Below, in pieces: positions 8,187 to 61,036 of a DNA stretch of 64,000 nt. The DNA is from Amoebophrya sp. A120 (taxonomy: Eukaryota > Protista > Dinoflagellata). The position numbers and the translations under genes are program-made. Location: positions 11,081,655-11,145,654 of the forward strand of contig CAJINV010000004.1 of NCBI GenBank assembly GCA_905178155.1. Reading direction: 5' to 3'. Numbering within the stretch: position 1 is the stretch's first letter; each line of letters opens with the position of its first letter. Under the pieces are notes generated by a model that worked only from the letters and a program-made list of their open reading frames with translations, had not been told where the DNA came from and did not search any database.

Positions 8187-10580
8187 CTACTGCGGGAATA
8201 ATTTGTCCGCGGTAGGTGCTACTTCTTGTTCGTTTTTCTCACCGTCGTTCTTTGCCTCGGTTGCCCGCCGTCGCGGAGAGCGACTGCGGGAACGCCGATT
8301 GTGACACAAACCACCACCATCATTAGCCATAGCAGCTGTCGTGTCGTTCATGATCTCGTTGCCTCTAGTTTCTTTATTTTCGTTCTCCAACGGGACGGAG
8401 TGCTTGGTGCTTCTAGTGCGGTCTACTTCGTACAAGCCTTCGATGTACCCGGGGCGGTCTGTTCGGTGTTTCACGTTGTCTCCCGTGAACTGCTGTTGAA
8501 ATTTCACGTATTGCCGCAACGGCCGAATCACTGTGTTATACGCCGTCACTTTTGATGTTTCCCCTCTCTTCACAAAGCTCGGCTGCCGGATTCTCTTGGA
8601 AATCTCGTCATTCCACTTGTCCAAGAACAACGCCAGCGCTTCCGCGGTCGAGTGCCCGAGAATGATCGGCGGAGGGGACGAATTAAAGTCATGGCTAGTG
8701 GTACAACTAGTACCAACAGTCGAGGAAGATGACGACGAAGTCGAAGCAGTCGCTTGTAATACATTGACAGCTGTTGGTGCAGCACCACCACCAGCACAAC
8801 CAGGCTTCTTCATCTTCAAAATCTCTGGCTTTCGCACCAGAAAGGCCGGCGCGGGAAGCGGTACGGCGGTCATTCCCTCCCGGTCCGAGGCCAGCGTGAC
8901 GCGGAGGATTTTTTTGGGAAAGCTCACCTCCATATGGAAGCGTCAGGTTTGAAATCCTCAAAGTTGAAACAATTTGTAATGCGTAAAATGCGACACAAAA
9001 AGTGACTCTATTGCAGAGGACCCATGGGAGGCAGATTATAGTCCTGGCAAGGGTCAAAAGTTGGACTGCTAACTAGCATGACAGAAGGCAGCTCTTTTGC
9101 CCAAAACCGCATGACAGACTCGCTTCCAGGTCCGGGAAAATTTGTCATGCGCCGACTACAAACTGTAGGTCTAACTGGTATCCGTTTTATGCATGACAAA
9201 CTATTTCAACTTTGACGATTTCAAACCTGACACATCCATACTCCATCTCCTCTGCGTACTTCCAAGTGGCGTATGCAGTGCAAAAGTATCGTACTCGTAG
9301 TAATTGGAATTGCAGTTATGCAATACAAATCTCGTTCTTAAGGCAAATCAGCATGAGAAATTCCAGTTGTCTTGCTGAGAAAATTTGTCATGCAATTTAT
9401 ACTAGTACGATGCTCTTGCAATGCATATGGCGTCCAAAACGACTAAATAGCGGTAGTACTTCCCCTTCACATCATTCGGGGGAGATAAATTTTCGTACCA
9501 CGACTCAGAATCTTCACCGTCCAACATCCGGGGAGAACTTCTACCAGTTTCGTTCGGAGAGGAGGCGGCGGTGCTGCTTGCCGCCGGAGTTCTAGCTTGT
9601 TGTTGGGTCGTTGTTAATTTCTCATCTGCTGCAGGAGCTCCTGCTCTTTGGATCTGCTTATTGCTCGTAGTTTCATGTTGAAAATTATGCGCGAAGACTT
9701 GATGTTTCGCCTTTATTTCTTCTCTATTCTCCTTTCTTTTCAATTTCATGGTCTTCTTGTCCCGTGGTGAGAGCCACAAAATCTGTCCTGGTAATTCCGA
9801 AATGTCCGCGGTCGGGGTGACTTCGGGGTTCTCCGTCTCGTCTTCGCACGAAGAGCTGCGCAAACCCATTTTCGCTCTCCGGACTGCGCGGATTACTTCA
9901 TCGGGGCTCGTTCCTTTGGAGGCGTTTTCCGCCCGTCGAATCGATTCGTCCTGATCTTCGAAAACTTCTTTGACCGTGAGTGCCTCTTTCGACGGAAAAA
10001 GCAACAAAGTCTTTTCCGGGTCCACCCGCAACTTCCGCTTCAGCTCATCACTCCAGCGCCGCCCCTTCACGATTTCGATCCGGTCTAAACACTTGGACAG
10101 GAAGTAGTCGGTTTTGTGTTTCTGCTTCTGCTCCTGGGGATGCTGCAGGACGATGATTTTCGTGAAGCTAGGGATCTTCAGTTTCTGCTCCGGCAACCAG
10201 GGACAGAGACACACGGTTTGTGGTCGGTCACACTTACCGCAGATTTGGCGCTTGTTTTTACTAGGTGCAGCGGCTCCTGTGCACGTGCTCGAGCTCGTCG
10301 CAGAAGGTGGTGCTGGATCATTTTTACCTGTATTAGCCGGCTCATCTTCCTGGTCTGTTCGTGTTTGTTGTACTTGGAGGGGTCGTTCTGATATGTCAGT
10401 GTGGCGTTCGTCTGAGGTGGATAACGTCGCAGCTCCTTGCTGTATCTCCGTTTTTGGTTGCGATTGAGGCTGTATTTGTTGCGGTTGCCGACCTTCTTCA
10501 TCTTTTTTGCTGTCGGCAGCCATCGCGTCATGCAGCCTTGCTCCGTTGATAGTTATTTCATGACTATCTTGCGCGCTCAT
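8187..10580 (-). CDS. DTWD2: DTW-domain tRNA-uridine aminocarboxypropyltransferase (DTWD2/TapT-like)
   Basis: CxxCxRPxxxCLC zinc motif and LQHPQE. After removing two TIR elements: VLDATWKYAEEMEVSF (DxTW motif), then FLVRKP and STAEAL. Confidence 0.85.
8933..9240. mobile_element. TIR introner, family B (308 bp), TSD CTCCA
   Basis: ~50-bp imperfect TIR TATGGAAGCGTCAGGTTTGAAATCCTCAAAGTTGAAA / TTTCAACTTTGACGATTTCAAACCTGACACATCCATA. CTCCA at 8928-8932 and 9241-9245. Confidence 0.92.
9272..9427. mobile_element. TIR introner, family A (156 bp), TSD TGGCG
   Basis: TATGCAGTGCAAAAG...CTCTTGCAATGCATA. TGGCG at 9267-9271 and 9428-9432. Splits the D-A-T-W motif. Confidence 0.92.
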
Positions 10581-11135
10581 TTTTGGTCTTGCTAAAGGAA
10601 AAGGACGCGTAATCGCTACATTTGAATGTAGTGTCAGATGTCAACCTGTTTTCATAAGTTTCTACTATACTTTCTTCTACATGATTGGCCTAACCGTTTT
10701 ACTCACTCTGCCTGTGCTTGGATCGTGCGAATGGGATCATTGGAACGGAAAAATAGACGCAATTGACCGGGGAAGCCGGGAACCGAATAACCGATGGATC
10801 TTCTCTGTTTACTTTTTGATCTTCCAGAATCTCTGGTTGCTTTTGGAGCTTGATCATTACTAACTCGAGGGTTTCTTGGGCTGTCTGGCCTCGTTCCTGC
10901 TACATGGACACTACTACATGCACGTGGTTTATGATCTGTATGCGCTGACACTGTTTCCATATCCACTCGGTGATCCACCATATCTATGAACAGAACAAAT
11001 TGATCTTTTCTTTGCGCAGGCAATAAATACATCAGGTGCAGCTCTTCTCGTCCTGACTGATTTGATTTGCGTAGTATTTATATCCTTCTCTGATCTTTTT
11101 CCAAGTCCAACAGGCAGGTCAGGAACAGGATGTAG

Positions 11136-11930: not shown

Positions 11931-11978
11931 AGAGCCCTAGCTGCCGTTCCTGCCAGAAAAACCCAAGTTGTAGAGCTC

Positions 11979-14900
11979 TCAGCCAGCACCTCCCCCGGCT
12001 GCACTTCTGAACGCGGCCAGCGCCGTCAAGACCTCCTCCCACCCGGTCTCCGTTTCTTGGTTGGCGCTCTCCGTTGCAAGCCTCTCCGTCGCAAGCAACA
12101 GCTGCTCTGCTCCCTCGTGGTCCGACTCCGCCACTTGATCCAGGATCGACAAAGCGATTTCTTGGAGGTCCAAAGGGTCCGGACGACACGCTAGCTCGCG
12201 CAACAGTTCCTGCTTCACCTGAACGGCATCCTCCGGCGCAGGGATTGCCCTCACCTGGGCCTTCCAGAACTCCGTGGACAAAGCGTGGTGATCAACAGTG
12301 GCGTGTTGGTGTTGCCCACCTGGTGCAGCAGGTGCCCTGTGGTGTTTGTCGATAAAATCTGCCTGTAACAGGTCCAACAGCCTTCGAAGGAAAGTTGCCC
12401 GGATCGAGGTGTATTTCTTCCCGAGGGTTTTACTAGTAGGCTTGTTTGGAAGATTTTCGCTCGCCGTTGTACCAACGTCCGCCGAAGACGACTGCAGATA
12501 GGAATTCGTCCCTTTATTCGACGAAGAAAGTGCACTGAGTGCGATTCCAAACCGCTTCAACGCTTTCGCACCCTTAGTGTTTTCTTGGTCCGCAGTGTAG
12601 TTTTCAGACGCCGCTGCAATCACATCTTGCAAGAACGCATCGACGCTTTGTTCATCTTCATCTTCAGTCGTGGGGCCGCCGGATCTCAACATCGTTGTAC
12701 TAAAAGCAGCGGCGCTCCCGGTCGACGCACGACCTGGTCCTGTTGCAACCTGCAGCTTCGCCGCGCAGACCATCCTCGCCAAATCCTGCCAGGACCACTT
12801 GTCCATCGTGATCGAGCGTACGAAACTGGTGTGCACCCCCAGCGACCGGTGCACGCCCGCGCAATTGAGGCAGAGAAAGACGCCGTGCGTCAGGCTCGCC
12901 CAGGACACCGAACTGTCCATCCTGGTGCAGTCCGCGCACTTGTGATTGTCCGTTTTCTCCCGCAGTTTGGTGAACAACTCCTGCAGAAACCCGCTATCCT
13001 GGTACAGGTGGTGACGGAGGGATTTTCTTACGGGATCTTCCCTCAGTACTGGCGTGCTACAGGAGTTCGAGCTCGAGTTGTCTTGGCGTGCATGATGTTG
13101 TACTATTTGTTCCGCGGGTGATGCGGGTTCAGACGCCGAGCTGTCGTCATCGTTCCAAGCCAAAATGGCGTTCGCTTTCGTACCGCCGGTGCCTGTGGGT
13201 GTAGTCCTGGCTGGTGGCGTACTAAGGGGAAAATTTCACAAATACAAATATCTGCAAAAATTGATGCTTAAAGGACAAAACTGCAGAGAAGCAGGCGCTC
13301 AGTGTTATGCTTTTCAGCAATTCAGGCCCTGTCGGGCATCCTTGGGAGGGGCGCCAGAGCATTCATCTCAGGCGGTCGCCATTTAACCCGACCAAAGTCG
13401 CACCAGCGCGGGCCGCCTAGCAGGGCGGCACTAGGGCTCTTGGGGCCGCGCCAGGGTGCCCGGAATTCCGGCGCCATGCGGCGCATGCGGAGGCAGTAAT
13501 AGGCCGCGGCGAATCGCCGAAAGGCGAAAATCGCATCAAAATGACGCAGAAAAATGCTCGCGGGCGACTTCTCCGGCAGGGGTCGCCGGACCCCCCTGCC
13601 TTTTCATTTGTGGAAAGTTTCCAAGCGGGAATTGGGAATTTGGCTGTTCCGAAGGGCCCCAGATCTTGGGGTCTCCGGAGGGGTCGGGTCTGTTCATTTG
13701 TGAAAAGTTTCCGAGTGGGAATAGCGTTTTTTTGCTCCAATCACGAGCTAAACGACAAACCGCATCGGCGGACTCGACGAAAAGGAAAGGCAGCAGCCTT
13801 CTGATTTTGTTGTTGAAGTATATGCATGCTCGTGGTCGTCCGGTATGGCTTCCAGCGACGCCAAACCCTCCGGACCTTGCCGGACAGAAGAACGCCGCGC
13901 GCTGTTGCTGTGCTGCTGTTCGACTCACCGGCGTTGCGTTTCGCAGACCCTGGACCCCCTCCCAGCAGCCCTGAAGCCTCTAAGGACCAATTTTTGCAGA
14001 TATTTGTATTTGTGAAATTTTCCACTCAGTATGGCGGTACAAGTATTGAAGCGGCTTTGTTGATGTCCTTGTCTACCTCGTAATCAACATGATCCGGCTG
14101 CAGATTCACTTCCTTCGGAGTAGAACCGGCCTGGTGACGAGAAGTCAAATTTATGCCCTCTAGTTGTACTGCGCCCGTGGTCACGGCGACTTTTTCCGCG
14201 AGCCCAACCTGCCCTAGAACTGCGGTGACCTGCGCAAACACCTTATCGACGGTTGCGGCAACGAATTTCTGACTGACTGTCTTGTTCGCTGACAGACCAA
14301 GCAGCTCTTCCCCGCCCCGCGCTTGCGAAATTTGCGCCGCTGCGGGGAACAGTTCTTTCGTGGTGAAGTCGAGAAACTGCACTAACTGCCTGTATAACTG
14401 CCGCCTTTTCACTGCGATCCGGTTCTTCAACCCCTCCAAATCACTCCCGTGCACGTGCGAAAAGTGGTCTTTCGCCTGGTGGACCAAGGCGAGTAGGTTG
14501 CACTGCACCATCTTCTGATCGGTTTTCGCGATCAGCTTCTCCATCGCCTCGTCGATTTGCTGCGTGAAAGATTGCGCAATGTAGTTCTCCTGGCCGGACT
14601 GCTTGGAAACCTGGAGGGCGAGGGACTTTTCTTCCGTGTCGAGGAAAGCCAGCTTCAAGTCGATCTCCTCTAAACGCTGTAGAAGTTGCTTTTTTTCGGA
14701 GTCGAGTTGTATTCGCTGCGTGCGCAGCTCGTCCAGCTTCGCTATCGCGGCCGTGCCCTGGTCATGAATGTCGTTGACGACCTGGATTTTGTTTGTACAA
14801 TAAAGAAAAGTGGGATTCATCGCATTTTTATGTGCTGGATCTTCATCATGAGTGACATCTACATCAGGAGCATGATACAGAACGGCTATATCAATCTAGG

Positions 14901-17900
14901 TACACATTTTTGGATAGACACAGCCTTATCATCTCCTCCCACTTAGTACCTCTTTTCTCCGTCGCTCCAAATCCGCCTGGCTGAGGCTCAATTTCTTCAC
15001 GATGGCGTCTGTCTCCGCCATGTTCTTGGTCAGGGATTCCACCATGCTCGAGCTTTCCACCACCGCAGCCTTCCCTTTTTTCCGAACGTTTTCCGTTCGC
15101 GCTTGGAGTTTCAGGACCATCGTCAACAGCAACAGCAACTTGTCCTGTGCAAAAGTATCGCACTCGTATAAATGCAAATGTTCGCTCGTTGTGGATCGGC
15201 TCTGCCGACCGGGTAACCCATCGCCTCACATACAAAGGACCGACATAGGCGAACCCCGTTGCGGGACATACAAATTGGCCGAACGGAAGGGCCCTAAGCG
15301 CTACATACATAGTTCACCCTAAGCGCCTACCACTTCGGTCGGGACTGAGTCTACCTGGTCCTGGGGGTCTACAGCGCACTAGCCCTCTGCTAGCATAAAC
15401 AGATTGGGCTCTACAAACTGATCTAACTTCTTGCAACAGTAAGGCCATCACAGAGGTGCGCTAAAACGGGTTCGGGGCGCTCCGTACGGAAGGGAGCCTT
15501 TCGACGCGGCGTACACGAGGCAAATCTTGTTCCCGAGGCAAATCAGCATTACAAATTTTATTCCTCATGCTACGGAAATTTGTAATGCATTTATACGAGT
15601 ACGGTACTTTTACAGTTCATACAACTGCTCCACGGACCTCGCGCACGCAGCGAGTTTCGTCACCCAGTTGTCTTCGTGCAGTCTCCTTTGCAGCAACAGC
15701 TTTCTGGACACGGTTTGCGCCCGCTCCGCGTTTCGTAAATCCTTCTGATCAGTCACGGTCTGCTCGAGCAGGGGCAGGACCAAGTCCCGCACCAGCAACG
15801 CGAACGTCGTATCTTCTACCCCATACTCCCTATGAATCACGCTGTTTTTCGACCGATCGTCCGCGTTGAGCAGAGTGGAAGAGAAAAAGATCCCGCTGCT
15901 CCTCGTGCGCGAGAACAAACCTGGGCTCTGGTCGTCCCCAGAAACGAGGTTCATGTATTGCGGAAGGTTCTGAATCTGCACCGACCCCGGGCCGGAGAGC
16001 TCGGGAAATTGCGAAGATGATGATCCTGCTGTAGAAGACCCGTTGCTCTTAACGTTACTGCTGGTGGAGCCACCACCTCCGGAATAATTTCCGGATGATC
16101 CATTCGTGATTGCAGCAGGGTTGGTCGAGGAGCTTGAGCCTCCTTTTTGGTGATAGTACCTCGACGACGCGTTTGGGAGATTTTCACTGTTGTACTGATC
16201 TCCACTGTAGCTCCTGCCCCTACTTCCGCCCGCGACAGCGGAAGAAGACAACAGTTTTTGCGGACTGCCGTCCTGATTCACGTTCGATCCCACTGAGCTG
16301 CAAATTTCGCTCAGTCGCATCTCTAAGGTTTTGATTTCCTTCTCGACCAGCGGTGCATCGCGCTGACGCAGCAAGGTGCAGGTTTGGCCGGTGCCACCAG
16401 CGGGGGCCCCACCAGCCGCACCCTTATTTCCACCTTGCAGCTCCACCGCAAAAGCCGCTGAAAAGTCGATCACGCCTAAATGGTCTTGCTCCGAGTCCTT
16501 CAGCCAGGAAAGAACCTGCACTGCCTGCTTGGTTTGCTGCAAAGCCTCTAGCAGAACGCCGTTCAGTCTGTTCGTCCGGAGCGTCAATTCGAAAAACTCC
16601 AGGCACGTCTGGAGAAATTCGGGCGGGTAGTTGCTGCTTTTCTGCTCCAGAACTGCCGGAAAATGGTCCTCCTGGACCAGTAGCTGCGCTTCGAGGTTAA
16701 CAGCTTCTTTCTCACGATCAGGAGCTGCAACCGTCATACTCGAAGCTGCCGTCGTGGTGCTTTCTGTCGTGTCGTCTTCAAAAGGCGAAGAGCTGGACGG
16801 TCTCGCGGGGACTCCTTCTTTCAACGTCTCCGCGCTTCGAGGGTGGTTCTTGATGTTTCCAGAGGAGTGAAGATCATCTTCTTCGCTGTACGTCCGTCGC
16901 CTGTCTCTACTACCGGTTGAGGATGACCCGGCGGCGCTTGTGGACGACAAAACGCTGTCCCCGAATGGGTTACTGGAATTTGCGCTATCTCCAAAGATAT
17001 CACTTCGTCGATCCCTTCCAGGCGACCAGGCTGAGGGGTTTCCGGTTTGCTTTTGCATTTGCTGTGCCTGTGCCGTGGCAGTCGCATGAATTTTTTCACC
17101 AGCTGGTCCCACCTCCACTGGTCCGGCGTCTGCACTTCTCGTCGGCACCTCCGCCTTTTGTTCGTCTGTCGGTGACCGCCGCGTCGGCGTGGGCACGAAA
17201 AAACCGCCGTCCGTTGCGTCCGTGCTTGTGATCACAGCTGCTCCGGTGGAAGAAAAACTGGCAACGTCCGCAGTCGGAGAGACCATGTCTCCGAGCGGCG
17301 GTTTCGGTGGCGCTTTCAACTGCACCGCACGCGCCGCGGGTGCGAAAACAGAACTGGATGTTGATGAAGCTGGAGTAGCGGACAGTTTCTTCACCGTGAT
17401 TCCACTTGTCGTGGACATCCCGTTCGGTCCCGGTGGCGGTGGTGGGGACAGCCTCGCCGTTCCCGCACCACTTAAAGCTCCTGCTCCACTTCCTGACGCG
17501 GCCCCAGCGACAGCGGTCCTTTCCGCGTCTAGGCCAGCAATGTGGGAGAATAAAAACTCTATCGCCTGCGTCCGTAGCAGAATCTGCCGAAAGCTGAAAA
17601 TCTTCTTGGGTTGCAGTTTGTCATGGATCGCAAAGGCGGGCTGATCGATCAGTTGCTGGGCGAGGTGAAGCTGCAATGCGCGATAGCTGGAAGCCGATCC
17701 AGATGGAGATGATCCCGCATCATCAATCTGATTGTTCTTCTTCGAAACGATGCCAAGCAATTGGTGGCTTACCGCGCTGGCCGCCAGGTCCTCCGCCGGT
17801 CGGACCAAGGACGCAATCCACTTCCTGAGCAGATTCTGCGCCGCAGCCAGGTCGTGGTGCGGCTGCTTCGCCGCCTCGGAGACCAGTGCCTCCTCCAACT

Positions 17901-25779: not shown

Positions 25780-28580
25780 CTAGTTCGCCGGACGGCAAAC
25801 GCTGTTTTTTGCATCCGCTTTTTCGGCGGCCTTGATTGCGTGCTTGGGCATCGGCTTGAGCACTTTGAAGGAACACATCAGCGTCTCGTCAACCTTCATC
25901 ATGGCTGCCGCGTTGTCGATATGGATCTGTCAGGATTGAAATCGTCAAAGTTGAAAGATTTGCCATGCATAAAAATGGATGAAAGTTGCGGCCCAGTTTC
26001 CGAGCGGCGCATGACAAATTTGGGTAGAGCCGACATCCAGTTTGTCATGCTGTTTGGGTAAGGAAGACGCCTGCTGTCATGCTACTTTAGCAGCTCAGTT
26101 TCTACCCCTCAACAGGCTTACAATCTGCCTCACTTGCCTACTCTGAAAGACAGGCACTCTGAGGGCTGCACTTTATGCATGACAAACTATTTCAACTTTG
26201 ACGATTTCAAACCTGACGCTTCCATAGTCGAATTCGTCGCAGTAATTCGGTGCGGAAAACAGCGTGATCAGTTATCAAATGTAAAAATGTCTGGGTCTGG
26301 AAATTTGTGATGCTAAAATGTGACTCCTGGGCGCACTGCAATACGAAGCCAAGCATGACAAGTTTTTGAGCTGCTCTTGTGTTTCATTTTCCGCATGGCA
26401 AATTGCGTTTCTGCATAACAGACAAGAGGCCCTTTTCGTGCTCCTGCATCACAGATTTATGAGTCATGCCAGACAAGCATAACAAACTTGCATTCTTCCA
26501 GACCCAGACATTTTTACATTTGATATCAGTTGCCGTTTCGCAAAAAACTCGTAACCATCCTCAACCACTTGGTGTGCACGGCAAATCAAATCCAATTCGT
26601 GCTTCCGGACAAAGGCCTGCACCACGTCCGGTCCAAAAATGTAACTAACCCCTCGGTCGTTTTCGGCGAAGCCGGAAATAGTCGTGTCCGGATCCGCCCA
26701 CAGCAGGTCGCACAGCACGCCCTGGTCCGGGACGTCCGTGGGTCGGACAAAGTTCTTCAAGTCGTCCAAAGAGTGGATGTGGGGAGAAAGTTATGCAAGA
26801 AAAAAACTGTGTAAGTGTAACTCTGTAATGCAGAACAGGCAACAGAGTTACACCTGTCATGCCAGACAGCCATGATCTCCTCTCTTCATGTGTATTTTCC
26901 CTTACAAGCAACGCATGACAAGGTTTCTCTGTCATGTAGAGCAAATTTGTGATGCCGTCAGCCAAAGAAAGTTACACTAACACGGTTTTTTTCTTGGATA
27001 AAAGTCCTCCGTGAATGCAGAGAATCTTCTCGTCTATCACCGCCGCCATCGGTAAACAGTTGAACATGTCGCAAAAATGTTTCCACAGCTTCACGTTGTA
27101 GCGCCGCTTATGGACGAGGGGAACGAATTCTTTTACCGTACACACAACCAACCATCGTATCAAATCATTCTGGCGAGTAAATTGCAAACAACTGGGAATA
27201 AAGTATAGACGATGATATCAAAAGAGTATCTTATCACGTTCATGATGCAGTGAGTAACATGTTCATCATCATGATGTGTAGATGCTTGTAAGTACTTGTC
27301 CGGTAAAAAATTCCCCCAGCGTATCGCTTGCAGTCGTCGTAGAACCCGTAGATCCTGGTAATCCCCGCGCACTCGTGGTTTCCACGGAGCGTAAAGAAAT
27401 TCTCGCTGTACTTCAACTTGTAGCACATCAGGAGCAGCATCACTTCAATCGACTGCCTCCCACGGTCGACGTAGTCTCCGAGGCAGAGGTAGTTGCACTC
27501 CGGTGGATATTATGCACTGCAAAAGTATCGCACTCGTATACAGCGTGCATTACAAATTTCCTCAGCATGAGAAATAAAATTTGTAATGCTGATTTACCTT
27601 ATCATCATCTAACTGCACTGGGCGAAAAAGATTTGTAATGCATGACTACAATACGAATATGATACTTTTGCAGAAGGTAGATATCCTCCGGTGTCGAAGA
27701 AGCGGAGCAGGTCGAAGTACTGCCCGTGAATGTCGTATGGGAGCGTCAGGATTGAAATCGACAAAGTTGAAATAATTTCTCATGCATAAATTGCAAGGCA
27801 TGAAGCGCCTCTCTTGCAGGGATGGCAAGTGAGGCCGACTGTCAGCCTGTTTGGGGTCTGCGTCTGCGATACGATAGAGCTGCTGAAGTAGCATGACAAA
27901 AGTCGCCTTCTGTCCCTAAACAGCATGACAAGCTGGATTTAGAGGGTGCGGAAATTTGTCATGCACCACTTGAAAATTGGGCTTCCTGCATTGCAAGTTC
28001 TTTCAACTTTGTCGATTTCAATCCTGACACTCCCATATGTCGCCCAGAATGTTCAGTGGCGCCTCCAACTCCAGGAAAACGGGCTGGGCGAGGAGCACCA
28101 ACCGCGTGGCGTTCAGCATATGGGATTCTCAAGCGTTACAATCTCAACTGTTACATGAATTTGTCATGCCAAACCGACCGAAACCACAAACGCAACCCAT
28201 AGGGCACCTTTCCGCAGATGGTCAGGCCACCGGGTCGCATGCAAAATTACAATCAGAATTGACACGATCACGCTGCTTCGCATGACAAATTCTCGAAGAG
28301 CCAAACAGGCTTAGAATCTGCGCCGAATCTGTCATGCAATACGCGCAAGGCCGCCCCTTTGGCTTTTAGTTTTGCCGTTCTTGCATCGATAAAAATCCAT
28401 GTAACAGTTGAGGATGTAACGTTTGAGAACGCCATACAGCAGCTTCTTGATCTCGGATTCCGTCAGAATCACGCTCGCAATGTTCTGCCGCGCCTGGTAC
28501 TTGCTCTTGGTATTGCGGACCTCAAGCAGGGTCGTGATATGCTTGTCCAGCTCCTCATCCGTTATGTTCTGGCCCTCCAT
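25780..28580 (-). CDS. PP1: Serine/threonine protein phosphatase PP1 catalytic subunit (8 exons, 7 non-canonical introns)
   Basis: Reconstructed motifs [77 protein letters not shown]. Confidence 0.95.
25920..26226. mobile_element. TIR introner, family B (307 bp), TSD GTCGA
   Basis: TATGGATCTGTCAGGATTGAAATCG...CGATTTCAAACCTGACGCTTCCATA. GTCGA at 25915-25919 and 26227-26231. Join EFD|NAAAMM. Confidence 0.93.
26273..26525. mobile_element. TIR introner, family D (253 bp), TSD TCAGT
   Basis: TIR TATCAAATGTAAAAATGTCTGGGTCTGGAA. TCAGT at 26268-26272 and 26526-26530. Join RQL|ITLFSAPNY. Confidence 0.93.
26792..27000. mobile_element. TIR introner (209 bp), TSD AAAGT
   Basis: TATGCAAGAAAAAAACTGTGTAAGTGTAACT / AGTTACACTAACACGGTTTTTTTCTTGGATA. 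AAAGT at 26787-26791 and 27001-27005. Join HGGL|SP. Confidence 0.93.
27109..27323. mobile_element. Decayed TIR introner (215 bp), TSD CCGCT/TCGCT
   Basis: TATGGACGAGGGGAA..TTTTACCG / CGGTAAAAAATTCCCCCAGCGTA. One TSD mismatch. Join CKR|RYNVKLW. Confidence 0.8.
27511..27679. mobile_element. TIR introner, family A (169 bp), TSD GATAT
   Basis: TATGCACTGCAAAAGTATC...GATACTTTTGCAGAAGGTA. GATAT at 27506-27510 and 27680-27684. Join GGY|PPECNYL. Confidence 0.92.
27736..28037. mobile_element. TIR introner, family B (302 bp), TSD TGTCG
   Basis: TATGGGAGCGTCAGGATTGAAATCGACAAAGTTGAAA / TTTCAACTTTGTCGATTTCAATCCTGACACTCCCATA. TGTCG at 27731-27735 and 28038-28042. Splits GD|IHG. Confidence 0.93.
28119..28436. 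mobile_element. TIR introner, family C (318 bp), TSD CAGCA
   Basis: TATGGGATTCTCAAGCGTTACAATCTCAACTGTTACATG / CATGTAACAGTTGAGGATGTAACGTTTGAGAACGCCATA. CAGCA at 28114-28118 and 28437-28441. Join KKLL|[11 protein letters not shown]. Confidence 0.92.
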
Positions 28581-42162: not shown

Positions 42163-44485
42163 CTATGCGGACAGAACTGTGTCCAGCATTCCCAGTAATG
42201 GTCGCAAGGTCTTTTCCTGGAGAGACAATTCCCGGCCAACTTTGTCGCGGAGAAGGTTGATAACCTGCATTATCCTTTCGTTTTCCGCCACAACGGCGCC
42301 GTTCGCGTCTACCACCGCGTGAAATAGGCTCACTATCAATCGCCGGAAGGTCACGGCCTCTTGCACGTCGATGACCCGGAGGACCCACTGCAAAATATCC
42401 TGAGTAAAAACGTACCCACACCAGAGTTGTCATGCAAATCTGCATGCCAAAAAAGTTTGTCATGTGGAGCGCCATGAGAGGCATTTTCTAGTCGTCCTTT
42501 GGAATTTGTGATGCTACAATCCGCATGATATACTGGATCTGTGATGCTGCTGAACTAAGTACCTAAACAGGATTACAGCACGAGGAGAAACTTGTCATGC
42601 CAAACGACCAGAGCTGGGTGATTTGTCTAGCAGATTCCCCATCTTGACTCTGGTGTGGGGAAGTTGCTTCAAATGATACAAAACCTGCAAGCACACCGTC
42701 TCCGGGAGGTTTTGGACCGCTTGGTGCAGCGCTGATCGGGACTCCAGTTCGTCCAAAAAGGACAAGGCGTAGCTCAAATTTGTGTTCTTCACGATCGCAA
42801 TCTCCAGGGCTTTTCTGTACTGGAAGTTCTTCAATGCGCTTTCCACCTGGTTCAGCTTTTGCTTTTTCAACTGAATCACTTCGGTCACCGATCCGTCCTT
42901 CTCGATGTCCGGGACTGGTTGCTCCGCGCCGCGCTTGTAGTACCTGGCGGTTAACGGCAACCCCCTTCCGGGGGCTTTGTTTTTGATGATCTTCCGCTTC
43001 TGATCCCCCTGCTTGCCGTTGTTGTTTAAATTCTTTTTCCGGACGCACCAGCTTCCGTTCTGCTGCGCGGTCGCGATCAGGTCGTCGGTGAAGAATTTTC
43101 CGAGTCGGACCGCTGTGGTGTCGTTGTTGTAGGTGAAGAGCGGTGTGTAGTCCGCGCTGTCCCACACCCGGTTGGTGCCGTCGAGGGAGGAGGAAAGGAG
43201 GTAGCGGCCGGAGGGGCTGACGTCCACATGACTCAAATCTTTCGTGTGGTGCTGACCGCCGAAAGTTGCGACGACGGCTGATGTGGAAGTTGTTCATAGG
43301 ACGATCGTTTGATAGCGTTCTTTATTTCAGCAAAAGACTCATTTGACATCAACATGATGATCCCAATCGCATTTATTTCACCTTGTGGTTGCGACCACAG
43401 TTCTTGTTATCAAGCTTACAAGGCTGGTTCACATTCTTCAAGCGGTTTGTAGTTTTCAGACCCAAAAGACAATTGATTGCCGTAATTTCTACCTGTGTCC
43501 GAGCTCATCCTTACGTCGAAAACCCGCATGTTGGTCCCCGCTGAGGCGACAAACATGGTGCTGCCGGGGTAGAACTGGACGCAGCTCACCGGATCCAAAG
43601 ACGTAGTTCCAGCCTCGCTATTCCCGTAGCTGTAACTGCCCACACACCCGTTATTGTTTCCTCCTGCTGATGTTGAACTCGATTGTCCGGAAGTACTAGC
43701 TGTTCGCGCATTAGAATTGGACACCCGGCTGTCCCAGATTTTGCAAATTCCCTCCGCACCGCCCGTGAGCCAAATGTTACTCTGGTCGGGGCTGGGGCAG
43801 AGCGCCTGCACGAAATCGGCGTGCGCGTGGTTCCACGTCATGATGGACCCGGTTCCGGTGGAGGAAGTGATGTCGTAAAGGCGCAAGGTTCTGTCCTTCC
43901 CGCCAGACAAAATTTGGGTTTTGTTAGTGGAAAAGCCGCAACACGTTGGGGTATTCGTGTGGCCCCGGAGACGACGAAGGACGCTGTTAGGCGGAGGTAT
44001 GGAGTTGTCACATGCAAAAACCAAACGATCATGACCGGAACAATTAGACCAAAAAGTTGGACGAGCAATTACATCCACATCTCCAACAATAACAAACTGA
44101 ATCGTCAAAAGCTATAGAAGAATTGACGTATTTATGAAAATCTGTACCTTCCCTCGCTCCATTCTATCACTGCGAGCGAGCCTCCTGCCTCGCCTGCGAC
44201 GAGCAGTTTCCCGTCGTCCCTCGCGTGCATGCAGGTTGTGAAGTCCTTGAACTTGTTGATCTGCAGCACTTGCTCTTTCGTCCGCAAACTCCAAAAGGAG
44301 ATCTTGGTTGAGTGCGCAACGGCGAACTGTCCCTTCTCCGCATTGTAGGCCAGGCCGGTCACCTCGCTGTCTTCCTTGTTTTCCACTCGTTTTCGATAGT
44401 TCGCAAATTCGCTGCCCGTTTCGGAGGAGGCGTGCAGTGCCTTGGCACCGGGCCGGTACAGTTGCTGCAGCCGAACGAATTCCAT
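42163..44485 (-). CDS. UTP15: U3 snoRNA-associated protein 15 (WD40 + UTP15 C-terminal domain)
   Basis: KFKD..RDDGKLLVAGE, LRRLRGH, HADFVQ, LKNFQYRKAL, ELESRSALHQAV, KVGRELSLQE..LLGMLD. GT-AG introns 43984-44147 and 43278-43492, plus element 42396-42678. Confidence 0.85.
42396..42678. mobile_element. TIR introner (283 bp), TSD CAAAA
   Basis: TATCCTGAGT..CCCACACCAGAGT / ACTCTGGTGTGGG..CAAATGATA. CAAAA at 42391-42395 and 42679-42683. Join LQVL|QWVLRV. Confidence 0.88.
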
Positions 44486-45253: not shown

Positions 45254-45344
45254 TTTCAGATCCTCATTTCATTCGGCGCATTTTTTCCGATCCTCGTTTT
45301 ATTCGACACATTTTTTCAGATCCTCGACTCGTTTATTTCGACGC
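45254..45344. repeat. Intergenic tandem repeat, ~30-bp unit x3
   Basis: Three degenerate copies of TTTTTTCAGATCCTCGTTTTATTCGACACA. Confidence 0.7.
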
Positions 45345-50518: not shown

Positions 50519-53500
50519 CTAGTCACTATCCGATGAAGATGCTTCATTTTTCTGCGCCATCTTTTTAATGCTGCGTCCGAATGCTGTGATTTTCTTGATC
50601 ATCATACCATTTGCGCTTGTGCTCGTCGCTGTACGACCTGTGGTGCTACTGCCACTTCTCTCCTGCTCCACCTCGGGATAATAATTGTACCCTCGACCCG
50701 TCCCAGAAAATAGAACAGCTTCTTCTGCAAACGGCTCATCCTGCGAGAAGAATCTTTTCCGCGCTGGCCGGGCGTCTTCAGGTGGTCGTGAGGTTTCTTG
50801 GTATACTGTCTCTTCGTCCGCAAAGATGTTCTTGACCACGTCGTGGTTTCTGTTCTGAATCTGATCCTGCTGCACATTATTTTTGCCCTTCAATATCACC
50901 ATCGTCGTAGGACTCGCACTCGGACTGCTGGACGCAGGGTTTAAAATTCGAGACTTTGGCTGAGCTATCGTCACCGACGGCGATGTTGACGCGGATGAGG
51001 AACCGGCTTTGGCTTTGGAGGTCCTGGTTCCGGGTTGCTGAGTGGGCACCGCTGGCTTCCGAGGCAAGGGCTGTACAGCTCCTTGTGCTACAACTCCCAC
51101 GCGTTTCATATTCGCCCCAGTTCGCGAGCTGGAACTGCCCCCTCTCGCGCTCGGACCTCCGGCCGAAGAGGACACGGCGGTCCGCACCGAATCTCCTGCC
51201 CGCAAAGGTGAAGCCAGCTGCTCCGCTCTACGCCTCTGCATCGCGCTTGGGCGGTTTGATTCACTCAAATGGGGGGCGAGGTCGGTTGTCACCATGTGAT
51301 GCTGTACAGGCGAACCAGGACCAGCTTCTTGCTGATTCATTTGAGCTGCAACAGCACCGGCTACGACCTTCGGCGCAGCGAGCCGGCTTGCTTTCACAGC
51401 TGGAACACCAAGATGAACACTGGCATTTTTACTACTTCCAGGACCACGCTGCGCAGCACTTGTTCTACTACCCCTGGATAAATAGTTGGAACGCTCGTTG
51501 CGCGCCTGCGCGAGGTGTTGCTCGATTTCCGCCTTCTCCTCGGAAATCATGCCGCGCAGCTCGTCCGCGACATTGACGTAAGTTTCCCCCGCATCCTTGA
51601 TATCCGTATGCAGCTTGTTTTCTTCGTATTCCTTCTCTTCGAACAATCTTTTCTCTTCCAAGCCTGTCACTGCGGTCGATTTGGCGTCGCTGATGATCTT
51701 CTCTAGCTGCCGCAGTTCCTTCTCGTCCGTTATAGCTTTGGCTCCAGGAGAAGAAACATCTTGTGGGGATGTGGATGAACCGAGCAAAGCCAAAGGTTTC
51801 TTCTTGTCCGGCGAAAGACTCCTTTCGAACCGCGCGGTCGCGATTGCCTGCTGCGCAATGTCCGCTGCAGTGGGGAGAGGAAGCTGCAACAGCGGTGGAG
51901 CTGCTCCTGATGTTGTGCTGGCCTCGCCGGCCACAGCGGCCTGGTCCGCTGCTTGGTCTTTCTGCATTTCGGCGTAGTATCAAATGCAAAAGTGTCTGGG
52001 TCTGGAAGCGTGCAAGGTTTGTCATGCACATTTTGCATGACTCCTGATGTCTGCGATGCATGCCCTAGCATCACAGACCTTGCGAGGGCTTTCTGATGCC
52101 GATACCGCATGAGAAATGCCCTCTCGCCGTGGCCAAAACCAGACCTCTTTTGCTGTTCATGCAATACAGATTTTTGGATAATGCAGACGCAGCATCACAA
52201 GTTGCATTGTTCAAGACCCAGACATTTTTACATTTGATACGTAGAGCCGATCGGCCACGACCACCGCCGACGTCTGCATAGTGTGCTCCTGTTGTGAAGA
52301 CGGCAAAATAAACTCTGTATCGTTTTTGATGCCCCCCGGAGCCAGAACATCAAAGATATCTTGGTCCTGCTGGTCTTGCAGCATTTTCTGGGCCACCATG
52401 TCACACACCCTGCCCGCGCGGTCGTGCAGAGAGAGAATGATGTCGCTGTACTTTAAGTGGCGTTTCTTCAGTTTTTCGTACTTTTCCTGCAATTTGTCGT
52501 ACCCCCCGCCCAAACGGATCTTCAGCTCGTCCCGCTCCCGCTTCATGATCTCAAAGGACTGCTTGTACTTTTGCAGCTGGATAGTTTGCTTGCGCATGTT
52601 CTCCACCTCCGCTTCCAGCACGATGCGCTGATCGCGTTCTTCATCTAGATCCCGGTTCAGCCGCTGCAAGTGCAACTTGAGCCCCTTATCATACGGAAAA
52701 GCACGACGACGACGCCCGTATTACCAGAGAAACAAAAAGATGAACTTGGCAATGATCTATGATGCCTTTATTTAGCGAACAATCTTTTACTTTTTTTTAG
52801 TGACTCTACAAACTTGAAAAAAAATGCTGCACAATCAACGAACTGTCTATGCTTTTTCTGCTACAATGGGTGATGTCAGTAAGTACTTTCCTGTGTGATA
52901 GCCCTTCACCTGTGCCGGCGCCTCGCTTGTTCCATCAGGTAGAAGAAGGTCTTCATCTTCATCCCCATCGTCCTCGCCTACTGTCTCGCGTAATCTCGAG
53001 GACTTCAGCGTCCCCTTCGCTCCAGGCAGGTCGGAGCTCTGCTGCGCACTGCTCCGCTTCAGCCGGTCGCTGTTCTGCTTGGCTAGTGATCTGGGCGTGG
53101 TCAGCTTTTCCCGGACAACGGCTTTATCGGCGGGCGCGTCGTGCTGCTCTTCGGCCCTGATGAAATTAAGCATTTGTTTTGACCACATTTTTATTTTGGA
53201 CCTTATGTTGACATTATTCAACTGGTTAATGTCGAAAGTTTTGCTCGCATCTCTGAGTGCGCCAATTTTGCGCACGACCGAACCAACGCAGCAGGAGCAG
53301 CAAGCGCATATTTATATACCCAACGCTAACGCAGCAGATGAAAGCGGCTATACTTATTACAAATTCATACTTTTTTGCCAACTCCGCAATGTTCTTCGAG
53401 ATCGTGGAGATCTTTCCTCGCAAGTCGCTCCGCTCGGAGTTCATACGCGGCACGCCAGGCTTTCGCGGTTGCTGCTGTCTTTTGCTCACCCCTGCTCGGG

Positions 53501-56657: not shown

Positions 56658-59600
56658 CTAGATCTGGATTTTTCCGTTATCGTCCCCCTGTACGCTGGGC
56701 CCGACCTGCAGCAGTTCCGCGCAGATCTCCTTTATCCTGGGCTCTGTCACTTTGCCACTGATTTCCTGCAGGCTTGCGGCGAGTTTAGTTTGGAAATCGT
56801 ATTTCAGCGAGACACTGGAGTCGTAGAGCACGTTTCCCATCCCGACCAGAACCTGTAGGTGAGGACGAGAAGAATGCTGTGCAGCTTGGCATCTTTTTCA
56901 CATGCAACAGCAGGAGTACAACGACGGACAACAACATCTTACTACAGATAAAAAAACAAGTGGAGGTATCACTATGGTGCGCATAGTGTACGATACCCTA
57001 TATAGCGCTTCGAAGTCCTCCGCCACCGTTCCGTTTTGCAGAACTTTGCCCGCATATAGTTTCAGCAAATCCAGCATTTCTGACCTTCCCTTTAGCTCTT
57101 TTCGGTCCGCAAACACCATCGTCAGGTTCATCAGGGTCGTCGCGAGGCTCACGCGGACTAACTTATGCCAATCGACTTTGTCTCCTGAGATATGCATCGC
57201 AAAAGTAGTATCAAGTCGCACGAATTCGCTACAAGAAATTAAATGTTGACGAGAAACTTTTCTATAATATAAGGAAGAGATGATGATGTGGACTCTCCTG
57301 CCATGCAGATGCAGTTGAAGACGTCGGCAACTCAAGTTTTATTGTCCTCATGCCAGACTGCAAGTCGAGGTTGTACTATGTACGAGTCCGATATTTCTAA
57401 ATTCACTTTTGCGTTGGATATGAGGAACTCGCTATCAGCTCCCCAATCGCTTCCAGCAAATACCCTCGTTTGTCGAACAGCACCGCCCTTGCCGTGAAAC
57501 TCGCAAACACGTTCGCCAGCCACCGCGCGCAGCTGATGCCCAGAGGGGATTTCAAGTTCGTTTTCAGCGTTTTCAGAATGAATGCGATGTAGCTGTAGCC
57601 GCGGTCGGTGCCCTTGAAGATGTCGGCTGAGTCCGGGTGGAGGAGGTACAGTATCCTGTACAAAAGTATCGCACTCGTAGTAATTGCAGTCATGCATTAC
57701 AAATTTTTTTCTCAAGGCCGATCCGCATGACAAATTTTATTTCTCATGCTGGGCTAATTTGTAATGCAATTTCTATACTAGTACGATGCTTTTGCAATTC
57801 ATATACAGGCGCCAAACGTCCACGACCGGAAAGAGTTTCTCCTCGGGCCAGCTGCCGCACTTCTTCCAGATTAAATCCCGTTCCACGGGGCGAAAGGACT
57901 TGGACTTGTTCTGCACTTTTCCCATGCCCTCGTTGAAGTGGTCGAGCTCGATCGAGTCCATGCGCTTTTCCGTGTCGTCTTCTGCGAACTCGCCGTTAAA
58001 CTCGAGGATCTTGCCCTTGGCGGCGTCTAACCTGTGGTCGTGTGAAGGGTAAAAATTATGTGCGTAATTTGACCAAAGTGAAAGTACATGACGGAGAAGG
58101 AGTTGACAAAAACATTTTTACATTTTTGGAGGAGAAGGGTAAGTATACTTCTCGCGCATGCTCTTCGTACAAAACAAAGTTGAAATAGGATGCATCAGCC
58201 TAGCTAGTAGAACAATTCAGTAGTACTTCCCCTGGTCAAAGAAAAGCGGCTGGTCCACGGGAAAGTGCTTCATTTTCGGCTTTCCCGAACTACTTGCCGA
58301 CGGGGTCGGTGCCGACGTAGGTGCTGCGGGTCTACTGCTTGGTTGACTCCTACTATTTGAGCCTCCGGCCGCGCTCGCACCCGCAGCGCCTCCAAGGGTT
58401 GGGGCGGAACTGTTTGTGCCGGTTTGTTGACGCAAGAAGGCGGTGATCTGTTCTATCATGGACTTGTGAATGTTCTCCCTGGCGCAAAACTTCTCGGCGG
58501 TGACTAACTGGTTATCACCCTCATTGTAGGGAAGTTTGGCAGTTTTCCCGCCCTCGCCCACCTCAACGTCAAAGACGTAGTCGTAGCCTTGCTTGGGGAA
58601 GAATTGGTCGCCTTCGTACTCCGTTTTGGGCTTTCCGGTGACCTCGCCGATTAAGTCCCACTGAACACCGTTCCAGCTGTACGCGTGGATGGTCCGCCCG
58701 GTCTTAAACATCTTGATCTCGCCCTGATGTAGTAAGTAGTAAGTACTTGTAGTGGTTTTGAAAAAAGTATCGCCGCTTCTGTATACTGGAGTTCTTATCG
58801 TCGGCATTTACATTTTCCTTCATTTGGAATCTACCAATCATGCCAAAAAAGTTAGTACGTTTTTCTTCCCTCTCACACTGCCCATTTCCGACACATCCTG
58901 CACCCCGTCCAGCGGTACCCCGGCGCCCTGCTTACTTGCTTCCGCGGCGGCCGACACCGCGTCGCTATTTTGCCTCGACCTCAAGTCGTCCGATGCGAAT
59001 CGCACCGGGTCCGTGGTCCATATCCGGACGATGCCGTCCGCGCAGGCGGTGACCACATCGCCGTTCGGGAGCGTGGACACGCCCCAGATCGTGTTGGAGT
59101 GCAGGATGGACTGCAGGCACTGAGAGTTGTCCAAATTCCACACCTTTAGCAGCCTGTCGTCACTGCCGCTGTAGAGTAACTTGTTCCGCTCCGTTGTCGC
59201 GGTATTTTCCGAAAGCGCGAGGTCGAAAATGAAGCTCTCGTGCCCGCTCAACTGGGCCATCTCCAGCCCATCCAACGTCCAAAACTTTATCTGGGAATCG
59301 TTGCTGCAGGAGACCAGGGAGGTGGAGTCGGTGTTGAACAATATTCTGCGCACGATGTCCGTGTGCCCCTCCAGCGTGGTCTTGGGCTGGTCCGCGCCAT
59401 TTTGGAATATCTTTATCTTCGCGTCCTGGGAACCTGAATATATATGTAGTAAATTCACTTTGATGATCAACAACGATCATACTAAAAAGATCACGTACTG
59501 AAGCTGTATTATGTGGTAACAAGGCGTGTAAATCGCGTAGTGGTGCGCAACTTTTTTGGGCGGGACCACCCAATTTTCAATTCAGAGTTTAAGCGTCAAA

Positions 59601-61036
59601 GACCCTGCTCGTTCAAAGATGTAGTTTCAGGTAGTAGACAACTAAGAACCACATCACCTGTCGCGATCTCCCCGGTAGGTAGCAAGCAGAGCGTAACTGC
59701 GTGTGTCCCGGCGTCGATTTTCCGGACCATGCCGCCCGTCAAAATGTCCCACACGCGACACGTCCCGTCCCAGGAGCCGGAATACAGGTGCGCTTGCTGC
59801 TCGACTAAACTGCACACCGCGCCTATTGAGAGGAAAAATCCCCCCTCCCCATATTGAAAAGGCATGTTTCCGAAAATTTGTGTTGCTGATTTGAGCCTTA
59901 ATTCCACCTGATATCCGTAGGCCTCGTTGGGGGTCCCTCACCCCCAACACGCCGAACTTCCTCCTTCCACACGCAGCGTCGGAGGGGTCGCACGTAGCCC
60001 TGTTGCTGATTTGAGGTCGCAAATCACAGTTGTTTTGCAAGAAGACAAGGGCAGAAGCTTCCGCCCCATTATGGAAGCGATTTGTCATGCTGTTGGGCCT
60101 AAAGGCGAGCCGCTTGCCATGCTGAACAACTAGACGCATGCGCCCCTACCTAGCCTGGGGATCTGACCGCAGTGCTTTCCTGCAATACAAAGCTGATTTG
60201 TGTACTCAAATCCAGCATCAGAAATTTCGTTTTGATATGGGGAGGGGGTATTTTTCTTTTTGATAGCGCCTTCGTGGCCCTGGAACGTCAGCATGCGGGT
60301 GCCAGATATAACCTGCTCAGGTGTTACAATCTCAAACGTTACAATAGAATCTGGAATTTGTGTCGCATGATGAGCATGACAGACTCGCACAGCGTTCCAC
60401 CTTTTGCAATACAAATTTCGCCAGATTATAGTGCGGATTGGGCCGCCAGAACTTGTCATGCGCAATCCTGTGGGAGTAGGCTAGGTCATGCACTCTTGCA
60501 TGACAGATTGCCATATTCTATTGTAACGTTTGAGATTGTAACAGCTGAGCGCGTTATACCAGAGTCGAGGTCGATCTTGAAGATGGTTTTTTCCTTGCCG
60601 CCCGTGTAGAAATACTTGTCCTTAATGTCGGCCGAGTCGCATATGGCGTACACGAAGTCGGAATGGTGGTGGAGCCTGAGTAGTACATATTTTTGAACCT
60701 TCTAGTACTAGTAAGTACTTACCTGCCAGTAGCATGCTGCTGCCAGAAGTGAAGCCGGCAACCATTCAGCTCGTTGGATTTTAGTATGATAAAAGAAATT
60801 TTCTCGGTGTCAACAAGAATGCGCGGTTTTTGTCATCAATAAATTCGATTCTCCTACCTCTTGTCCAGGTCGAAGTGCTTGACACTTTTTCCATCTTCCC
60901 CTAGCACAGGCTTGAACAAGCACACCAGCGCGTCGACGCCGCCAGTCGCAATGAAACCGTTCTTCAGCACACAGATACACCGCACGGCCTTCTCGTGGCC
61001 CTGCAGCTCCTGGCAGAGCTCCAGGTCGGCGTTCAT
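56658..61036 (-). CDS. PLAA: Phospholipase A2-activating protein / Doa1 / Ufd3 (WD40-PFU-PUL), 10 exons
   Basis: WD40 repeats (GHEKAVR, GHEGAVCSL, SGSWDGT, GHTDIVR). PFU YDYVFDVEV..KLPYN. PUL EALYRVLVGMGNVL. GT-AG introns 60676-60857, 59434-59657, 58724-58858, 58032-58226, 56853-56996, plus four TIR elements. Confidence 0.93.
57191..57420. mobile_element. Decayed TIR introner (230 bp), TSD TGAGA/TGAGG
   Basis: TATGCATCGCAAAAGT / ACTTTTGCGTTGGATA. Flanks at 57186-57190 and 57421-57425. Join ASSS|GDKVDW. Confidence 0.82.
57652..57803. mobile_element. TIR introner, family A (152 bp), TSD TACAG
   Basis: TATCCTGTACAAAAGTATCG...CGATGCTTTTGCAATTCATA. TACAG at 57647-57651 and 57804-57808. Join WRLY|LLHP. 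Confidence 0.92.
59824..60265. mobile_element. TIR introner (442 bp), TSD GCGCC
   Basis: TATTGAGAGGAAAAATCCCCCCTCCCCATAT / ATATGGGGAGGGGGTATTTTTCTTTTTGATA. GCGCC at 59819-59823 and 60266-60270. Join GHEGA|VCSL. Confidence 0.92.
60307..60558. mobile_element. TIR introner, family C-like (252 bp), TSD CCAGA
   Basis: TATAACCTGCTCAGGTGTTACAATCTCAAACGTTACAATAGAAT / ATTCTATTGTAACGTTTGAGATTGTAACAGCTGAGCGCGTTATA. CCAGA at 60302-60306 and 60559-60563. Join LDSG|TRMLTFQGH. Confidence 0.93.

Follow-up and report, generated by a model that had tools for sequence, protein, structure and literature searches.

Results and Discussion

Introner elements at the locus

We analyzed a 64,000-nucleotide stretch of the genome of the dinoflagellate Amoebophrya sp. 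A120 (contig CAJINV010000004.1, positions 11,081,655 to 11,145,654; hereafter the window), in which genes are interrupted by short transposon-like elements, and this report concerns a sequence of 12-13 nucleotides (nt), here called the box, that recurs inside nearly all of these elements. Pfam gave names to five of the 17 long open reading frames (ORFs), namely DTW, ArfGap, FtsJ, TFIIB zinc ribbon and WD40, and a Metallophos (PPP-type phosphatase) gene was found on the minus strand at 25500-29200; no Rfam family rose above threshold anywhere in the window. Contigs of the runs X3-X6 were aligned to positions 1-20000 and 25500-45499 and were treated as transcript assemblies, because they skip ordinary minus-strand GT-AG introns. 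All RNA-supported introns in the 40 kb with contig coverage, canonical and non-canonical alike, lay on the minus strand, so that the covered sequence is best read as one co-oriented gene block.

The elements resemble miniature inverted-repeat transposable elements (MITEs). They measure 149-481 bp, apart from one of 812 bp, have TAT...ATA ends, and carry terminal inverted repeats (TIRs) of 19-56 nt that were 75-100% complementary in an inverted-repeat scan. A 5-bp direct repeat, the target-site duplication (TSD), flanks the elements and is perfect except in decayed copies, and the TSD sequences showed neither a preference nor AG|GT. In every measurable case, the RNA-like contigs skipped exactly the element and one TSD copy, with an ambiguity of 5-6 nt at each joint and, over nine element joints, with non-canonical ends (AG..TA, CT..TA, TG..TA, CA..TA, TT..AG, AA..AT and GA..TA), and the same contigs also skipped canonical CT..AC introns. 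Minimum-energy folds paired the two ends of the elements. The initial annotation of the window had described the TIRs as not aligning with one another; distinct families were indeed recovered, but the TAT start and the 5-bp TSD are common to them, and the TIR pattern TAT-N7-AAAA is shared by families A, D, E, G, H and K, with B, C and J sharing TAT alone. Because the TSD length is fixed and the termini are TAT...ATA in all families, this uniformity suggests a single transposition chemistry.

In these features, the elements match the introners that Farhat et al. (2021, PMC7789003) described in Amoebophrya sp. A120. The available parts of that article describe non-GT-AG borders, a hairpin of terminal inverted repeats (IRs) and short direct repeats (DRs) across the borders, with IRs made of TAT, seven variable nucleotides and at least three As, introns of ~240 nt, many families and co-oriented genes (PMC7789003), and in dataset sd07 of Gozashti et al. 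(2025, PMC12130899), A120 families measuring 148-320 bp carry the label 'TIR DNA, Unknown'. The borders, the hairpin, the direct repeat, the TAT-N7-A ends, the intron size, the multiplicity of families and the co-oriented genes all recur here, with the difference that the published DRs are 3-5 nt long, whereas those found here were uniformly 5 bp (PMC7789003).

Seven introner elements (B2, D1, H, 27109, A4, B3 and C1), all inside ~2.5 kb, interrupt the Metallophos gene, certain exons of which are just 41-103 nt long. The 25.9-28.4 kb cluster that they form was also considered as intergenic DNA, which was rejected because Metallophos exons lie between the elements. The exons on either side of element 27109..27323 match the Metallophos profile in succession, at positions 35-74 and 115-190, and when the seven elements were deleted together with one TSD copy each, the longest minus-strand open frame grew from 123 to 371 codons.

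A box shared by the elements

The initial annotation had reported a motif, GCAT[G/T/C]ACAA, that is repeated in both orientations across families of elements. We found 41 exact matches to it on both strands of the window, whereas 1.82 were expected (standard deviation 1.48) and the maximum in 100 dinucleotide shuffles of the window was 8. Ten clusters took in all 41 matches, and each of the 41 fell inside one of 18 elements, out of 20 that had been delimited (5,752 nt in total). When the letters inside the elements were shuffled (1000 shuffles), a mean of 0.14 exact matches and a maximum of 2 were left. The motif coordinates given earlier were all recovered within 1-2 nt as exact matches (Table 1). 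The exact motif was absent both from 15 RNA-supported minus-strand GT-AG introns (2,965 nt) and from the window outside the elements (~58 kb), rather than being equally frequent there, which agrees with the earlier remark that it had not been noticed in the GT-AG introns of RAE1, UTP15 or PLAA. Likewise, the elements at 27109 and 57191 and the 812-bp element, in which the motif had been described as weak or absent, contained no exact box.

Motif discovery led back to the same sequence and lengthened it. The leading words among the 7-9-mers enriched in elements were all fragments of the box, with GCATGACA occurring 32 times within elements and once outside in the window. Alignment and a logo of the 41 sites gave the full box as GCATNACAAATT(T), 12-13 nt long, with GCATNACAAATTT as its 13-letter form and G, T or C as the variants at the fifth base; positions 10-12 were A in 33, T in 32 and T in 35 of the 41 sites, and the 8 nt upstream of the box carried no information. 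When sites were grouped by mismatches to the 12 fixed letters, those inside elements made up 15 of 15 (no mismatch), 35 of 36 (at most one) and 58 of 64 (at most two). A position weight matrix (PWM) of the 13-mer had 79 matches of at least 9 bits in 5.6 kb of elements versus 25 in 58 kb outside, with 2-7 matches per element except in the 812-bp element F, which had none.

Table 1. Introner elements in the window, with their box content and the RNA joints that skip them.
Element	Coordinates	Length (nt)	TSD	Exact boxes	PWM matches	RNA joint (nt skipped)	Remarks
Family A	371..521	151	AGCCA (366-370 and 522-526)	1	3	365>522 (156 = 151 + 5)	AG..TA joint ends; exact match at 474-482
Family B (B1)	8933..9240	308	CTCCA	3	5	8927>9241 (313 = 308 + 5)	56-nt TIR, its inner end being the box; exact matches at 9142-9150, 9191-9199
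Family A	9272..9427	156	TGGCG	1	4	9266>9428 (161 = 156 + 5)	
Element F	13220..14031	812	TGGCG	0	0 (>=9 bits)	13214>14032, X3 and X4 (817 = 812 + 5)	Starts TAC; 55-nt TIR
Family A	15141..15621	481	CAACT	2		15135>15622 (486 = 481 + 5)	Terminus mutated to TGT; two boxes form hairpin at 15546-15588
Family B (B2)	25920..26226	307	GTCGA	3			Inside minus-strand Metallophos phosphatase gene
Family D (D1)	26273..26525	253	TCAGT	2	5		Perfect 30-nt TIR; one PWM match in one direction, four in the other; exact matches at 26305-26313, 26353-26361
Family H	26792..27000	209	AAAGT	2	4		Splits Metallophos domain
Decayed element	27109..27323	215	CCGCT/TCGCT (4/5)	0			Gapped TIR
Family A (A4)	27511..27679	169	GATAT	3			
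Family B (B3)	27736..28037	302	TGTCG	3	5		
Family C (C1)	28119..28436	318	CAGCA	2			Exact matches at 28161-28169, 28280-28288
Non-canonical intron with family J element	31806..32096	291				31805>32097 (X3, X4, X6)	TATGAGAGTGCACAAC...; perfect 33-nt palindrome in the centre (31889-31955), its two outer ends each carrying a box
Family D (D2)	35219..35470	252	AAGAC	4	5	35212>35470 (257 = 252 + 5)	Orientation opposite to D1
Family A	35536..35684	149	GACGA	3		35530>35685 (154 = 149 + 5)	Boxes ordered M1, M2, loop, M3
Family E	42396..42678	283	CAAAA	3	5		Boxes in single orientation; RNA-like contig pieces start at 42679, next to element; exact match at 42592-42600
Family D	51978..52239	262	CGTAG	2	7		Exact match at 52019-52027
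Decayed A-like element	57191..57420	~230	TGAGA/TGAGG (4/5)	0	1, weak, at terminus		
Family A	57652..57804	153	TACAG	3 (counted over 57652-57800)			
Family G	59824..60265	442	GCGCC	1	5		Exact match at 60082-60090
Family C	60307..60558	252	CCAGA	1	5		Exact match at 60453-60461

The box across families and loci

A metagenome contig collection was scanned with the box-loop-box pattern of the family A hairpin as bait, which returned 152 loci (362 kb). Among these, 147 came from a single assembly, and their elements belong to the families already seen in the window, with 76-92% identity to the window copies; the other five, from other assemblies, were rejected as chance matches because they were isolated palindromes without further boxes. 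A blind element search was then run over the window and the 152 loci, with a perfect 5-bp TSD and a TIR of at least 16/20 matching positions as the requirements. This search gave 222 candidates, 196 of which start with TAT, and after removal of duplicates and non-TA ends there were 182 unique TA...TA elements with 5-bp TSDs of varied sequence. The bait hairpin is absent from 113 of the 182 elements, and these therefore form a set that is unbiased for the box. At least one exact 9-mer was present in 111 of the 113 and at least two PWM matches of 12 bits or more in 110, and the box-bearing elements of this set span families A, B, C, D, E, G, H, J and K, that is, at least nine TIR families. The two elements without an exact 9-mer were element F and one D-like copy.

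The box is also what the families have in common at the level of sequence. Short-word BLAST between family representatives, one per family, yielded matches of 10-16 nt, nearly all of which were the box or pieces of it, with no longer homology, and the flanks of the box were unrelated between families. Between families, the box alone aligns. Among copies with the same TIR (B1, B2 and B3; D1-D3), the interiors were mostly unalignable and boxes were present in each, those of B2 sitting at other places than those of B1 and B3.

Placement and conservation of the box

Read inward from the terminus, the outermost box is AAATTTGTNATGC and lies at an offset of 36-39 or 27-28 nt in families B, C, D, E, G, H and J. 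It is placed at the inner edge of the TIR, symmetrically at both ends in most families, and the boxes at the two ends are mirror images in B, C, D and G. The larger offset was observed at 20 of 22 ends in family B (36-37), 22 of 52 in D (36-37, with 7 more at 28), 7 of 14 in C (37-38) and 6 of 11 in G (38-39), and the smaller one at 9 of 27 ends in E (27), 6 of 14 in H (27) and 4 of 9 in J (28). In family A, the polarity of the box is opposite and the offsets are 33-34 and 42.

The centres of adjacent boxes have a preferred spacing of ~31-34 nt. Within the window, 24 of 54 such distances fell in 28-36 nt versus 7.0 +/- 2.4 under random placement, and none of 5000 permutations reached 24. The non-A families of the window and the loci together gave 287 distances, of which 113 lay between 28 and 39 nt, 97 between 48 and 59 nt, and few in the gap separating these two ranges. 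The share of distances in 28-36 nt was 60% in family H, 56% in A, 47% in B, 43% in E, 38% in G, 30% in K, 25% in D, 6% in C and 0% in J. About 31 nt corresponds to three turns of B-DNA, and the two offset classes (36-39 and 27-28) differ by about one turn.

Conservation was tested in one family, with 85 aligned copies of family A and with M1, the family A box copy that lies outside the search bait. The major-allele frequency was 0.91 in M1 and 0.90 in the TIR, against 0.65-0.74 in the spacers (Mann-Whitney p = 2.7e-5), and in pairwise comparisons M1 differed 0.27-0.40 times as often as the spacers, whatever the level of divergence, so that the box is ~3 times more conserved than the spacers and on par with the TIR. 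Private substitutions per column, which are small counts, were 0.62 in M1, 0.50-0.57 in the TIR and ~0.5 in the spacers. Because they are as frequent in M1 and the TIR as in the spacers, these small counts hint that the constraint acts on propagating lineages rather than on each inserted copy.

Other observations were made on the interiors and ends of these elements. Nested insertion was rejected as the origin of the internal hairpins, because the hairpins are without TAT ends and TSDs. The element at 15141-15621 has a box-free, GC-richer stretch of ~360 nt between its left TIR and the box hairpin, which may be filler or a captured insertion, and the element is still skipped precisely. In family A, the terminus resembles the box at positions 4-16 (GCAnTGCAAAAGT; for example, 35536-35551 and 35669-35684), and 27 of 162 family A ends scored at least 12 bits as a box; such a resemblance was rejected as a general feature, since the consensus ends of the other families are without it.

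Box orientation and removal from RNA

Relative to the coding strand, 155 boxes were sense and 185 antisense (p = 0.12), with the host strand assigned for those elements whose deletion restored an open frame on just one of the two strands; 94 of the 182 elements were unclear in this respect. The asymmetric families insert both ways (9 versus 10 in D, 2 versus 6 in E). In minimum-energy RNA folds, which were computed without shuffles and without element A3, the box copies of A, B and J paired with one another over 38-74% of their nucleotides, those of E over 3% and those of D2 over 25%. Element F, which is box-free, was skipped precisely in two RNA-like runs, and the box-free element 27109..27323 sits inside the Metallophos coding domain, its removal from RNA being inferred from the reading frame. 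In these two elements, the second of them by inference, the box was not required for removal. Since there is no orientation bias and box-free elements are removed, a strand-specific RNA signal and a requirement for removal are both disfavoured, and the orientation and removal results fit a site that is read on double-stranded DNA.

The initial annotation had proposed that the motif is either a transposase subterminal repeat or a splicing-factor site. The former gained from the offset, the ~31-nt spacing, the occurrence in both orientations and the conservation in family A, and the latter lost ground through element F, element 27109 and the lack of orientation bias. The nested RNA stems that had also been envisaged are found in the palindromic families A, B and J but not in E and D2, where the boxes are unidirectional.

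A putative subterminal binding site

Considering these results, we propose with moderate confidence that the box serves, at the DNA level, as a subterminal site to which a transposase or an accessory protein would bind, and that it is not a splicing signal. One such protein would bind the box on double-stranded DNA, and it may be the transposase itself; as a phased subterminal site, the box would then offer a common handle for mobilising all of these families, of which there are at least nine with distinct TIRs. The TIRs themselves could diversify freely, since they would mainly need self-complementarity for an RNA hairpin that joins the intron ends, and a hairpin bringing the intron ends together has been proposed for A120 introns in the available text of PMC7789003. 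Such a division of labour, in which the TIRs vary while still pairing and the box is kept, could explain the extreme diversity of the TIRs.

Several points weigh against this proposal. No transposase or integrase was found among 21 ORFs of the window, nor in the fetched loci, where 66 out of 88 ORFs with a length of at least 220 amino acids were examined; no element longer than 812 bp with the same ends was found in the window and the 362 kb of loci, and no transposase is reported for strain A120 in the available parts of PMC7789003. Candidates of 1.5-6 kb from the search for TSDs and TIRs were rejected as autonomous elements because they were pairings between separate copies. The reversed polarity of the box relative to the terminus in family A, and the boxes of family E, which lie at one end only and all point in the same direction, are untidy for a fixed transpososome geometry. 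The 31-nt spacing was not shown by families C (1/17) and J (0/11), and the spacing statistics are inflated because copies within a family are not independent. The conservation test does not distinguish constraint during propagation from constraint after insertion, and nearest-neighbour pairs failed to separate the two, the nearest copies being 9-15% diverged. In addition, all of the further element-bearing loci belong to one assembly that was reached via the family A bait, which restricts the survey to that assembly and the window.

It is unlikely, in our estimate, that the box is instead an inherited module without present function. In that case all families would go back to a single ancestral palindromic element, its core hairpin (box, ~17-nt loop, inverted box) having undergone copying, inversion and reshuffling, and the box would persist through its multi-copy state and recent amplification. 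Such an origin would account for the hairpin core that is seen repeatedly in A, B and H, where the box centres lie 33-34 nt from each other, for the deep kinship of the families in TSD length, TAT terminus and, in six of them, TAT-N7-AAAA, for private substitutions that are not depleted in the box, and for the loss of the box from the oldest-looking elements (27109 and 57191). However, the box is near-exact between families whose surroundings have diverged beyond recognition, it exceeds the spacers of family A in conservation and equals the TIR, and a defined offset is kept in families with unrelated TIR sequence. Neutral relics would not keep sequence, conservation and offset, and the inherited module is disfavoured for this reason.

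A role at the RNA level, in which the box and its complement build internal stems, or in which the duplex RNA is bound by a factor that marks introners for removal, appears quite unlikely to us. The removal borders have no splice consensus and are defined by the TIR stem and the TSD alone, so some element-intrinsic removal signal must exist, and the pairing between box copies in A, B and J, the lengthening of the terminal stem by the outermost boxes in B, C, D and G, and the lack of the box in the 15 canonical introns would suit such a role. No U1 small nuclear RNA is reported and a hairpin-dependent mechanism is proposed in the available parts of PMC7789003, which points in the same direction. 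Against this stand the box-free elements F, skipped precisely, and 27109, inside a coding domain, the scant mutual pairing of the unidirectional boxes in E and D2, and the balanced orientation relative to the coding strand. Moreover, any complementary sequence makes a stem, and pairing therefore fails to explain the retention of this sequence in all families; the variable fifth base was complementary in six of nine hairpin pairs, a tally that is not clearly above chance.

The GCATG core, which is contained in the G variant of the box, occurs in the sites of several eukaryotic DNA- and RNA-binding proteins. A site for a host DNA-binding factor (silencing, chromatin or transcription factor), with box-bearing elements being tolerated or favoured, could be strand-agnostic, phased and confined to elements as the box is, with GCATG in its G variant, but we consider this very unlikely, since there are no exact copies in the 58 kb outside elements, where promoters and intergenic DNA would use such a site, the T and C variants are without GCATG, and the fixed offset from the termini points to end recognition.

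A broader version of the proposed DNA site is highly doubtful, namely that a single trans-acting factor recognises GCATNACAAATTT in every family, mobilises the DNA and also tags the elements for spliceosome-independent, hairpin-guided excision, through which they could reside in coding exons, so that the box and not the TIR would define one introner superfamily. If true, it would explain the spread of nearly two thousand TIR 'families' without an ordinary transposase having been found.

Comparison with known systems

Ac/Ds (hAT) and En/Spm (CACTA) have subterminal repeats, and the P element has internal transposase sites; in these systems, short motifs lie in several copies and in both orientations within ~30-200 bp of both ends and are needed for transposase binding. 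The elements described here likewise carry a repeated short motif near both ends, apart from the extreme terminus, and in family A this motif is conserved above the interior. They also have the TIRs and fixed-length TSD of MITEs, with 182 unique copies at unrelated sites. The hAT, CACTA and P superfamilies have 8-bp or 3-bp TSDs and other termini, whereas the present elements have a 5-bp TSD, TAT...ATA ends and a length of mostly 150-320 bp, and binding to their box is putative. Subterminal repeats of Kat1/hAT are named in the available part of PMC4763223.

A 5-bp TSD is typical of retroviral-type integrases. In terms of ends and TSD, the integrase-related GingerRoot elements have TA...TA termini, a 6-bp TSD and TIRs of 100-150 bp, Ginger elements end in TG...CA, and most long terminal repeat (LTR) elements make a 5-bp TSD, according to the sections of PMC6839031 drawn on here. 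The TA...TA ends and a short TSD of integrase size are shared with the elements of the window, and the TSD length and TIR length differ. A TIR element of A120 with a Copia/Gypsy-like ORF, 'family 38', is described in PMC12130899. Neither the 21 ORFs of the window nor the examined ORFs of the loci included an integrase, and the link to integrase transposons is a lead only. The nonconventional introns of euglenids have variable non-canonical borders and an RNA structure that joins the intron ends (PMC3935182, PMC4770533), which are likenesses to the present elements; the abstracts of these articles do not describe TSD-flanked transposon families with a shared internal box.

According to the available text of PMC7789003 and PMC12130899, no family-specific IR motifs or general transposase were found for the A120 introners; the published account covers the terminal IR and the DR, and a family-shared internal box is not mentioned in that text. 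The box is undescribed in the literature on Amoebophrya introners as far as examined, with Figures S19-S25 of PMC7789003 outside this scope. The matches listed for the box 9-mers elsewhere in the literature were primer or short hairpin RNA contexts, and literature linking introners with subterminal repeats gave nothing relevant by title. The elements themselves are already published and of a known kind, and what is new is the internal box that they share.

How hairpin-bounded introns mobilise and how they are removed is left open in the available parts of both articles (PMC7789003, PMC12130899), and a box that is present in ~98% of elements and in at least nine TIR families provides a handle on both processes. 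An oligonucleotide carrying it could be used as bait to capture the binding protein, and the box could also guide searches for autonomous copies, mark the many 'families' as one superfamily, and be set against element age and splicing efficiency.

Other features of the window

A 58-nt direct repeat (11136-11193 and 11882-11939) is 93% identical between its copies, which are 746 nt apart in sequence to which no RNA-like contigs align. Between the copies are four weak PWM matches (11232, 11557, 11681 and 11814), and because of these the stretch 11136-11939 may be a decayed or different element. Inverted repeats of 51 nt (21549-21599 and 22690-22740), 76% complementary, enclose a GC-rich array at 21597-21858, which consists of 15-nt and 11-nt tandem repeats of the GGCCCGCCCCTGGCT type and is a kind of repeat unlike the box-bearing elements.

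The raw RNA runs X9 and X10 (2026, same species label) gave 24 reads, all of which fell on 365-396 at 95-99% identity. These reads match a 32-nt piece of the family A TIR and then continue into unrelated sequence, with the rest of the 20 kb uncovered, and they seem to derive from a different strain or organism that shares just the 365-396 piece.

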